Shown here piece after piece: positions 49,750-52,700 of a stretch of 64,000 nucleotides of DNA. Position numbers: made by a program. Each line of letters starts with the position of its first letter. Within the stretch, counting starts at the first letter, position 1. Source of the DNA: Escherichia coli (GTDB lineage: Bacteria; Pseudomonadota; Gammaproteobacteria; Enterobacterales; Enterobacteriaceae). Location: the NCBI RefSeq assembly GCF_044324785.1, contig NZ_CP172127.1; one strand, 5' to 3'.

Positions 49750-52700
49750 TAGTGACCTTCGTGGCTGTAGTAAAAGACCGGTAATCCCAGCTTAAGACGT
49801 AGCGCCAGTAAGCGGGCAAAAAAGCCGAATACCAGGGTGGAGATAATCACCACATCATGGTTAGAAACATAGTGTTGCAGCGCGATGTACAGCACGGCGG
49901 AGGCAAATGAGACACCGGCATACAATTCTTTCTGGAATACCAGCGGGATGCGTTTACAGAACATATCGCGCAAAACGCCGCCAAATACGCCGGTCGTCAC
50001 AGCTGCGACAACGGCAATGATCGGGCCGTGTCCCATATCCAGTGCAACCTGTGCGCCAATGATAGAAAAGACTACCAGTCCGAGCGCATCGAGCACCAGA
50101 AACACTTTGCGCAGGTAAGGCATTACAGGAGCAACAATAGTGGTGAGTACTGCGGCGGTAGCGACGATAATCACATATTCCGGGTGTTTGACCCAGCCGA
50201 GCGGATAGTGGCCCAGCAGAATATCGCGCACTGACCCTCCGCCAATTGCCGTGGCGGTCGCAATAATAATTACGCCAAATGTATCCATGCGCCGTCGTCC
50301 GGCCGCCAGCGCCCCCGTCATGGCTTCGGCAGTAATGCCAACCAAATACAAAATGTGTAACAGCATGGTTCTCTCCCTAAAAATCTGTCTGGCAGGGTAG
50401 CGATTTGTGCGCATTGTCACGATTGAGATTTTTTAAGGTGAGAGGAAATTGATAATTTTTAGTTATGTGAAATCGTTGTTTTCTGTAGCGTAGATGCATT
50501 CTTCTGACTTCTTGTCTGAGAAAATGCATAAGAAAAAGTAGGTTAAAACTGAGGGGTGGAAAAGAAAGGTGCAATGTTAGCCATTGTGTTCACTGCACCT
50601 GGACCTTGGCTTACGCATCGGGTGTCTCAATCATCAAAAAGAGTTTTTAGTTTCTGCTATTTCTTCTCTGTAATTTTTACACTGTTTTCCAACTGCTTGA
50701 TGCTGACCTGCGGGGTCGGCAACTTAATACAACCATTTTGGTGGTTTCAACGAAATGGTCAGATGCAGCTTGATTGCTGGCTTCGCACGCTTGAGTCGCG
50801 CGGGCCAGTACCTTTTGAAAATTGCGCCAGTCCCGATAATCCAGTAACGGTGCCAATTCTCTCGCTGACCAAAATTCTTGCCCTTCAGTGCCATAATGCC
50901 GTATTTCTTCAAAAGGTTGATGATGTTCGTTCATTGCCCACTCCATGTGATATCGATTGCAAGGAAAGTAAGTCTACAACTGTGTTTATATACAGTTGTG
51001 AGTATCTCACGTTCTCACTGCGCTGGGCAAAAAAACATCGCAAAATCTGGAGCAGGCACGCAAAACAGAATTGAATGTTGCGGGGAGGAAAAATGCCGCT
51101 CTGTTTGAGTGGACGGCATTTGTGAAGGCTGAAAAGGAAGAATTGGCGTTACGAGTTATTCGATGTTGGATCTGTTTGTAGAGTATTGGCTTCAATGCCG
51201 CATTGTAGCTGGTTTCTTCCTAATGCGATTTTTGATTATGTACACCCTTATGTACACGGTTTTTTCGGGTGCTTTGGTCAGAAGCCATTGCCTACATCCC
51301 TCACGATCGAGGTGTGTAACCATGTTCAGGCTTGTTGTCCTGCGCGCGCGTATTGCTCGTGAAATTGCTGTACCCAATAGTGATGTCCGAAAAAACCTCC
51401 GTTCTCACATGAAACAGCCATATGCAACTGGTAACTGAACAGACTGGTAGACCGTTCGTTCAGTAAATACCTGATATTTTCGCCAACGAGAAATTGCGTT
51501 GGCTGGCAGGGTGCAAATTTGCACGATGGACTAACCCATTGATTCTTTCGAAAACCCCCATTGGGGGAAAAGCCTAACCCATTGGTTTTCCCACAATCCT
51601 CAATTTGAGGAATGTACCTAAAACCATTTTTATAGCTCCGATCCCTTCAAAGTGAGGGGTAATTTGCCAAAACAGAGAGAGCATTACTGTCTCTGGCAAT
51701 CTTTATCGCGATAACGCCTGAAGTACCCTCTCGCTTCCTCATCCATACCAAGAGCCGAATGAGTCCGCTTAACTGCCTGTCTTAAATCTCCGAATCTGTC
51801 TGTAGTTGCTGGTGGGCGTGCCGCCTTACGGATACATTCAGAGCGTCTGTTTGCTGCATGTTCACGTTCTTTATCGCCATCTGCCAGCATCATGACTTCT
51901 GCCCATCGTGCGGCAGCTCTCCGGTATAGCCCTTTTGACTCCAGCTCTTCAGCTTTCCTGTCCCTTATCATTTCTGCCTCTCAGATTATATAGATAAGCA
52001 AAAAGGTGTTGGTTCAGTTGGTTCAGTTGGTTCAATTTGTAAAGATCGTTGTTTTTATTGTGTTTTTTCTGAAATGTTGAACCAACATCAACTCATTTTG
52101 AACCAACACAGTCCAGCTCTGAACCAACAACACAGCGATAGCTTTGTGATTGGTCCGTTATTTTCTGGTTGATATTTGAGCGTATAACAGTGTTATACAG
52201 TGGTATACTGTATGGATATTACTCACTGATATGGTCTTTGCAATGAGCAAATCTAATCTGGTCGCGTTCCGCATCCCATCTGAATTGCAGGATGAGTTTA
52301 ATCGGTCTGTTCTCGCTTCTGGAGGGGATAAAACCTCCTGGCTTGTTGATGCGATTCGCATGAAGCTGGGACAGCCGGAAAAGTCTATTGATTCACGAAT
52401 GCTTGGGCTGGTGGAGCGCATGGAAAAAGCCGCTGCGTCGCTTATTGCCGGAAAGCCGAACATCCCACCAAAGCTATATAACGAAACGGCAGTTATAAAG
52501 ATCATTGCCGATACCATCCGACAGGGATTTGATAATGGGCGTGTGATAGCGGAACGGCTCAATGAAGCAGGCTATCAAACAAAAGCTGGTAAAGCATGGG
52601 ATAAAGACATTTACAGCGCGTGGAAGCGTCAGGGAAGCAATGCTGAAAAGTTATCAGTGGCTCTAAGAATGTAGCCCTATATTTTGATTTTTAGACGTGC

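Follow-up and report, generated by a model that had tools for sequence, protein, structure and literature searches.

In the chromosome of Escherichia coli (assembly GCF_044324785.1, contig NZ_CP172127.1), the heptamer CCCATTG occurs three times in the non-coding DNA between a perC-family gene and the left end of an integrated phage satellite, within a stretch of 64,000 nucleotides that we refer to as the window, and to which all coordinates below apply. The repeated element is not the heptamer, but a 39-nt unit that occurs twice, 43 bp apart (51531–51569 and 51574–51612), and that combines a palindrome with a site for integration host factor (IHF). Comparison with phage genomes places the same composite inside the coding sequences of the phage genes roi and rha. 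We consider it an even prospect that the CCCATTG copies belong to a tandem array of such roi/rha boxes, and that the array forms a DNA-level platform for IHF and a dyad-binding protein, probably the Roi or Rha protein of a helper phage.

On the minus strand, the one that encodes perC, a unit consists of a 13-nt GC palindrome, a 10-nt spacer and the IHF consensus WATCAANNNNTTR, and the composite spans 43–54 bp. A roi/rha box is defined here as a palindrome of 13 nt (up to 22 nt) with its dyad centre 16.5–17 nt upstream of an IHF consensus. In unit 1, the palindrome CCTCAATTTGAGG (51598–51610; CCTCAAATTGAGG on the minus strand) is followed by the spacer ATTGTGGGAA and the IHF site AACCAATGGGTTA (51575–51587, minus strand), which has one mismatch. 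Unit 2 has the palindrome CCCCCATTGGGGG (51555–51567; CCCCCAATGGGGG on the minus strand), the spacer TTTTCGAAAG, and the IHF site AATCAATGGGTTA (51532–51544, minus strand) that matches the consensus perfectly. The outer CCCATTG copies are the variable NNNN centres of these two IHF sites, copy 1 in unit 2 and copy 3 in unit 1, and the middle copy is part of the unit 2 palindrome. A first-pass annotation of the sequence had listed the three heptamers at 51535, 51557 and 51578, with the middle one inside a hairpin flanked by A/T runs; all three positions are confirmed, on the plus strand, and the middle copy indeed lies in CCCCCATTGGGGG, between gaaaa and aaaag. The spacings of 22 and 21 bp are also correct, but they are a by-product of the 43-bp composite layout, and the idea of a helically phased 7-mer is not upheld.

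Downstream of unit 2 on the minus strand is a third unit with a longer dyad, GCCAACG-N8-CGTTGGC (51482–51503), centred 16.5 nt upstream of the IHF-like site TATCAGGTATTTA (51464–51476, minus strand), which departs from WATCAANNNNTTR at one position. The counterpart of this unit in phage-inducible chromosomal islands (PICIs), AACGCAATTTTGCGTT together with TATCAGCAAGTTA, resembles the unit found inside rha of phage P22. A perfect 14-bp palindrome, GTGCAAATTTGCAC (51511–51524), has no IHF site of its own, and is kept in every copy of the module in the form GTGCAAWWTTGCAC. It had been described as lying 30 bp upstream of the repeats, which is approximate, since it precedes the first CCCATTG by 11 bp and the middle one by about 33 bp. 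The three dyad-plus-IHF units and the GTGCAA..TTGCAC palindrome make up a shared module of about 150 bp (51463–51612, minus strand), the stretch to which blastn matches in PICI-type islands are limited.

The clustering of these elements is unusual for the window. CCCATTG occurs six times on both strands, three of these outside the array, and base composition gives a probability of about 6e-4 that three or more on one strand would fall within 50 nt somewhere in the window. Perfect matches to the IHF consensus are limited to two, one of them at 51532–51544 on the minus strand, and the three IHF-like sites of the array (0, 1 and 1 mismatches), all on the minus strand, fall within 124 bp where the window density predicts 0.34. 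A scan for the composite of dyad and IHF site returned six in the window, three of them in the array, as compared with an average of 1.8 in shuffled windows. The distance from dyad centre to IHF core is 16.5–17.0 nt in the window, in two PICIs (L146 and L147) and in roi of phage HK022. As stated in the first-pass annotation, no credible open reading frame (ORF) covers 51000–51680; the longest, 91 aa at 51163–51438 on the plus strand, starts inside the attachment (att) core, and neither this ORF nor that at 51192–51377 on the minus strand has a Pfam match.

The relationship to phage genes is most direct for unit 1. Positions 51570–51632 align by blastn with codons 36–57 of roi from lambdoid and Shiga toxin (Stx) phages, including phage JLK-2012, Lahn2 and Stx1a phages, at 84–86% identity over 63 nt; a PICI copy reaches 91% identity to roi, and the overall range is 84–91% over 57–63 nt. 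The unit is contained in a somewhat longer non-coding remnant (51570–51655, minus strand) that corresponds to about codons 28–57 of lambdoid roi, and that is interrupted by a frameshift and stop codons in a translation read by eye. In the roi frame, CAATGGG supplies the N-G of the peptide 'INGLG'. Each satellite box matches a different roi/rha allele. The palindrome CCTCAAATTGAGG of unit 1 is identical to that of PQIE-type roi alleles, and another satellite palindrome, CCTGCATTGCAGG, is that of the PALQ allele. The unit 2 palindrome matches PPM(V/G) alleles; the PPMV form, CCCCCAATGGTGG, is imperfect in the gene and perfect in satellites as CCCCCAATGGGGG. In 92 phage records, the genes with these alleles are annotated as 'DNA-binding protein Roi' or as anti-repressor.

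Inside the phage genes, the composite occupies a fixed position. When viral contigs were scanned for the spacer joined to the beginning of the IHF site, 118 loci came up, the majority of them intact roi-like genes. A further set of 80 Roi homologues was gathered by means of conserved peptides that lie away from the unit. The IHF consensus is perfect in 78 of these, falls on identical codons, is invariably spelled ATC AAT nnn TTA, and has a 13-nt palindrome 10 nt before it. In HK022 roi, whose product has a Rha-like N-terminus and a KilAC domain, codons ~44–57 read CTGCATTGCAG, a 10-nt spacer and AATCAATGATTTA, and the IHF site is the only perfect consensus in the 4-kb nin region. The arrangement in P22 rha is CGCATTTTTGCG and TTTCCGAAAA followed by AATCAATAACTTA, and resembles the third unit type of the satellites; the P22 genome holds four perfect consensus matches, one in rha and another 21 nt from the annotated attP core. 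The sequence element in phage roi and rha (HK022 and P22; rha of phi80 is also IHF-regulated) and the satellite box are thus the same. They differ in deployment: the phage box is single-copy and placed inside a coding sequence, whereas the satellite boxes are non-coding, arranged in tandem with several alleles combined, and have no roi gene alongside. HK022 Roi is said to bind inside its own gene, near an IHF site, in a complex that IHF reportedly stabilises. Regulation of rha by IHF has been described, as has a block of phage growth by Rha and Roi proteins in IHF-deficient hosts (PMC4936722, citing Henthorn & Friedman 1995 and Mozola & Friedman 1985).

To assess constraint on the element, 21 distinct units from satellites and genes were aligned by hand. 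The most conserved columns are A-TCAA and TTA, where A25, C27, A28, T34 and A36 never change and T26, A29 and T35 hardly ever do; variation is seen at the N4 positions and in columns 31–33. The 5-bp stem is paired in 93.3% of cells, with compensatory changes at all five pairs. None of 500 shuffles, which ignore that the units are related by descent, reach the observed values for pairing and covariation, and controls in which the stem was slid show 30–45% pairing. Relative to their closest gene alleles, satellite copies have changed in the N4 positions (TAAC to TGGG) and in the last base of the spacer, and one further change (GGTGG to GGGGG) makes a palindrome perfect. This substitution pattern suggests selection on the dyad and the IHF core, rather than the decay expected of a pseudogene.

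A decaying remnant is nevertheless the alternative that has to be weighed here: the array may be a gene fossil or recombination scar, composed of fragments of roi and rha genes that were once carried or have repeatedly recombined, and that have no present function. The position of unit 1 in a roi-like remnant of ~85 nt with frameshift and stop codons is what such an origin would leave, copy number is polymorphic, and the high identity to phage alleles allows the fragments to be recent. On the other hand, each allele retains just the ~50-nt segment with dyad and IHF site, these segments stand in tandem and derive from at least 3–4 alleles, and the palindromes and IHF cores are intact, with substitutions confined to free positions apart from the one that perfects a palindrome. 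The module is moreover common to satellite families that are otherwise unrelated. We regard a functionless scar as unlikely.

The island that carries the array is, as read from its genes, a P4-like or PICI-like satellite integrated at the 3' end of yicC. It encodes perC, an ImmA-like protease, P22-like ejection proteins and a TOPRIM/DUF927 primase, and contains iterons; the island of strain N12 also has DUF4222, an AntA/AntB protein, a helix-turn-helix (HTH) regulator, and a tyrosine integrase adjoining yicC. When 51400–51690 was used as blastn query, matches were obtained in 550 of 5426 complete E. coli genomes, and many of these are limited to query positions 64–213 (window ~51463–51612) and lie in other satellites. 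The array is thus present in related elements. In perC-type satellites, the number of units at this position is one (L002 and L004), two (the window and N12) or at least four (L005, L126 and L140). Across several E. coli satellite families, arrays contain 1–6 boxes in non-coding DNA, mostly in the terminal region and in either orientation.

The Gram-negative PICIs (GN-PICIs) with arrays have the gene order int, HTH, Icd-like, DUF4222, P4-family primase, capsid-like, and Nu1- or TerS-like, and are located at cspD/clpS (in O157:H7), at roxA/phoQ, and next to yejO. Their arrays occupy the last non-coding stretch and, with respect to the island end, point the other way from the array in the window. 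The arrays of L142 and L141 are placed between genes. L146 has four good units spaced by 54, 152 and 54 bp, and the 152-bp interval also holds degenerate ones. Elements that differ in integrase and att site share the module, which is therefore portable and not tied to a particular integrase or att system. The PICI terminal non-coding region also contains a direct repeat of ~85 bp (CACCTGAATCATCATTACCGTGATCAAGGG...CCGGAAAAAAAGCCAGGTA) and CCCGATATGGGGATCACCATATCGGG palindromes, at 16690–16780 and 17225–17310 in L146 and at 17780–17880 in L147.

At this level of sequence, and as far as these scans reach, the unit is found only in phages and satellites of Escherichia; P22 has a related form. A strict anchor-pattern scan of genome contigs gave no matches, and a second scan gave 24, of which 23 are due to chance and one is a real roi. 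The latter is a typical E. coli phage roi of the PALQ allele on a 3.9-kb contig (L367, JAEZCC010000011.1) of a metagenome-assembled genome classified as 'Bacillota', probably through contamination of the bin. Exact matches to the 15-mer AATCAATGGGTTAGG in viral contigs are, among the matches listed, mostly due to chance, and are informative only after filtering by context. Single matches to AATCAATGGGTTAGG are at chance level; close inverted pairs of the 13–15-mer are above it, and were seen in the unrelated metagenomic viral contigs L032, L034, L043, L111 and L112.

The orientation of the units bears on whether the array could act in RNA. In roi and rha, and also after perC, whose stop codon precedes unit 1 by 72 bp on the minus strand (a location downstream of the PerC-like gene that agrees with the first-pass annotation), the units are sense-oriented. 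The spacer opens with TTTT in most of them, hairpin and IHF site stand a constant distance apart, and the hairpin stems covary. These features could be accounted for by an IHF-assisted terminator or insulator, and so could the reported regulation of rha by IHF (PMC4936722): the GC hairpin with UUUU would be weak by itself, and IHF bound 10 nt downstream would stall RNA polymerase at the U-tract. Transcription from perC would then end before attP and int or before the host dinD, and attenuation inside roi and rha would explain the harm of these genes in IHF-deficient hosts. Against this mechanism, the stems are only 5–6 bp and the T-run only four, the JLK-type roi unit has a poor U-tract (ATTGTGG), and in PICIs and L141 the array runs antisense to the operon beside it. 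A scan of 50900–52400 found no promoter-like site, and no minus-strand terminator with a GC-rich stem and at least five T in 8 nt. A terminator role is in our judgement rather unlikely, and since the array is used in both orientations, a role at the level of DNA is favoured over one at the level of RNA.

The same orientation argument applies to a small structured RNA encoded at the array, which we consider the most improbable of the functions discussed here. Folding energies are below those of shuffled sequences (z −2.0 on the minus and −3.0 on the plus strand), but these low values are explained by the local palindromes, and the module is present in both orientations relative to neighbouring genes. 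A scan of 49500–54000 against Rfam 15 gave no match at E values up to 1. As for G-T wobble asymmetry, which might distinguish RNA from DNA, inspection by eye gave two cases on each strand and no signal.

The position of the array relative to the island boundary was established by a four-way alignment of attL (the window), attB (strain TG1), attR (strain N12) and attP (NZ_CP148430.1, referred to as L002). The aligned core reads TTATTCGAT(G/A)TTCTG(A/G)ATCTG and lies at the 3' end of yicC; in the window, the attL core (TTATTCGATGT--TGGATCTG) is at 51157–51175 and forms the left island boundary. Continuous alignment of the region to core sequence, which would speak against a location at the edge of a mobile element, is not what is found: the window carries chromosomal ligB, yicG and a dinD remnant, similarity to the core chromosome ends at ~51167–51174 in 4730 of the 5426 genomes, where yicC comes next, and the whole of 50950–51700 is present in only 154. 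The mobile-edge location proposed in the first-pass annotation is thereby borne out. Two direct repeats, TTATGTACAC, at 51236–51245 and 51248–51257 on the plus strand are likely arm-type sites of the integrase, and GTGTACATAA-type repeats flank the attP core on both sides in L002. The integrase-specific arm extends over ~51175–51405; L140, whose integrase is a different one, resembles the window only as far as ~51405 and has arm repeats of its own beyond that point. L002 (positions 1–12152) was deposited as a 12-kb non-mobilisable plasmid of chicken E. coli. It represents the excised, circular episome of this satellite family, and its attP, between perC and int, is intact.

The first-pass annotation had offered an attachment or recombination site as one identity for the array. 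This does not hold, because the core at 51157–51175 is ~360 bp from the CCCATTG copies, the arm repeats are at 51236–51257, and the module is shared across different integrases. A more indirect role in recombination would be that of accessory IHF sites, which bend the arm of the attP or attL intasome for integration and excision. IHF sites are standard in attP of tyrosine integrases, and in P22 a perfect match is situated 21 nt away from the attP core. The array adjoins the att arm, between the arm and the perC stop codon, and after circularisation it falls between perC and attP-int. However, the CCCATTG array is ~360–430 bp inside the left end of the satellite and the module starts ~290 bp inside; the sites are 290–430 bp from the core and beyond the end of the integrase-specific arm at ~51405. 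Furthermore, the module accompanies other integrases and att sites, also occurs inverted, and in one case stands internally between genes, and the number of units varies on the side away from the core. We hold an accessory intasome role to be improbable.

Packaging is another process in which IHF assists a second protein, and a cosB-like or pac-like site for assembly of small terminase and IHF would share with lambda cosB the design of protein-binding repeats and an IHF site. In PICIs, the array comes after a Nu1- or TerS-like gene. Yet the perfect lambda cosN of the PICIs (GGGCGGCGACCT) is upstream of this gene, ~1 kb from the array. No cosN-like sequence (GGGCGGCGACCT with up to three mismatches) was found in 51000–52000 or within several hundred base pairs of the arrays in L146, L147 and L002, and no P2/P4 cos with up to four mismatches in the window, L001, L002, L146 or L147. 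The array was rejected as a lambda-type cos site, for which cosN would be required within ~150 bp of the binding repeats, and a packaging function in the wider sense is very improbable.

In more general terms, lambda cosB (R3-I1-R2-R1) and attP (H1, H2 and H' with Xis and Int arm sites) follow the same logic as the array, in that IHF bends are interleaved with sites for a second protein; the array differs from both by having no cosN nearby, integrase arm and core sites located elsewhere, and no fixed orientation relative to att. RIB/RIP elements (BIME-1, of the bacterial interspersed mosaic elements) likewise combine palindromes with an IHF consensus, and are repeated after the last gene of a transcription unit. 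The array palindromes are much shorter (13 nt), and are confined to phage roi/rha and satellites rather than spread across the core genome. Six words derived from repetitive extragenic palindromic (REP) sequences are absent from 51380–51700 on both strands.

The reading that we give even weight is that of a cooperative platform. IHF would bind and sharply bend each site, a dimeric protein would bind the adjacent dyad, and each unit would thus constitute a joint site for IHF and the dyad binder. The most likely dyad binder is the Roi or Rha protein of a helper phage. None of the satellites examined encodes a Roi, and the binder would therefore be provided by the helper; L002 does have an AntA/AntB protein, but one with no relation to HK022 Roi. 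By combining alleles, the satellite would display landing sites for several variants of the helper protein, and might use them to detect lytic development of the helper or to sequester its regulator. Candidate outputs are helper sensing, sequestration of the regulator, insulation, and control of int after circularisation.

Several points weigh against this interpretation. The non-coding location and the conservation pattern agree with the protein-binding array envisaged in the first-pass annotation, but occupancy by IHF and the nature of the dyad binder are deduced from the sequence, and the footprinted HK022 Roi site would have to coincide with the present palindrome. The alignment of 21 units was assembled by hand, and compensatory variation is equally expected of an RNA or single-stranded DNA hairpin. 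Three different palindromes in one array would demand several Roi variants or a structure-specific binder. When the array palindrome was compared with the resident roi allele of the same genome, one match and one mismatch were obtained from two genomes only. Phage lambda has no roi and yet induces the model PICI EcCICFT073, so that Roi cannot be a universal inducer. Finally, the arrays may be scars of recombination that are too young to have decayed.

A more specific version of the platform would be a cis-acting helper detector, with operators copied from the roi and rha genes of different helpers, each retaining its IHF site. A helper in lytic growth would load its own Roi or Rha on the satellite, and thereby either switch on a satellite function (excision, expression of int, or replication after circularisation) or have its regulator drained. 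In this specific form, we view the proposal as tentative and on balance doubtful. To our knowledge, the recognition of helper activity by phage satellites of Gram-negative bacteria has not been fully worked out. The element that carries the array is of the same kind as GN-PICIs of the EcCICFT073 type and P4-like satellites: its tyrosine integrase adjoins yicC, it encodes DUF4222 and an HTH regulator of the AlpA type, and iterons accompany its TOPRIM/DUF927 primase. The literature on such satellites treats their cos sites, Rpp and AlpA, but we found no description in it of an array of IHF sites and palindromes. An IHF site next to the dyad of a regulator is known in kind, and it is the tandem, multi-allele, non-coding deployment in satellites that looks new.

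Other features of the island and its surroundings were noted. The perC-family gene (51684–51971, minus strand) is assigned by its RefSeq annotation and by Pfam PF06069 (E 2.6e-33). Outside the island, the dinD remnant (50677–50946) has a 544-bp deletion relative to strain N12 (junction 50721–50724), leaving an ORF of 89 aa with a Bro-N N-terminus, and a LexA-box-like sequence, CTGTGTTTATATACAG, is intact nearby at 50980–50995. An iteron block (52001–52135, with three copies of GGTTCAGTT and three of TGAACCAAC) is located between perC and a divergent ORF (52231–52674). A second copy, inverted and partial, adjoins the end of the primase gene at ~61822–61885, and in the 12-kb circular relative iterons follow directly after the primase stop codon; the blocks are probably a replication origin that is present in two places. 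An insertion sequence (IS) element at 53631–54960 (ORFs 53642–54547 and 54505–54915, minus strand) is missing from the otherwise 99% identical island of N12. The segment 56473–61131 encodes proteins named by RefSeq as injection protein, phage DNA ejection protein and DUF2824, a P22-like ejection-protein set that is unusual cargo for a P4-like or PICI-like element, and that hints at a podovirus as helper.

Even if the array is inert, it is a clean marker of past recombination between satellites and phages. For the phages, the comparison shows that the coding sequence of roi and rha carries a strongly conserved DNA-level signal, a covarying palindrome and an IHF site in fixed codons. These genes have long been known to depend on IHF, and the internal signal is a specific candidate for the cause. 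For the satellites, a non-coding array that mimics an internal early-gene operator of the helper in several allelic versions would, if the interpretation is correct, be a simple device for recognition or interference. Should it serve as a helper detector, the helper range of the satellite would be encoded in how many boxes the array has and in their alleles, and could then be predicted from sequence alone.

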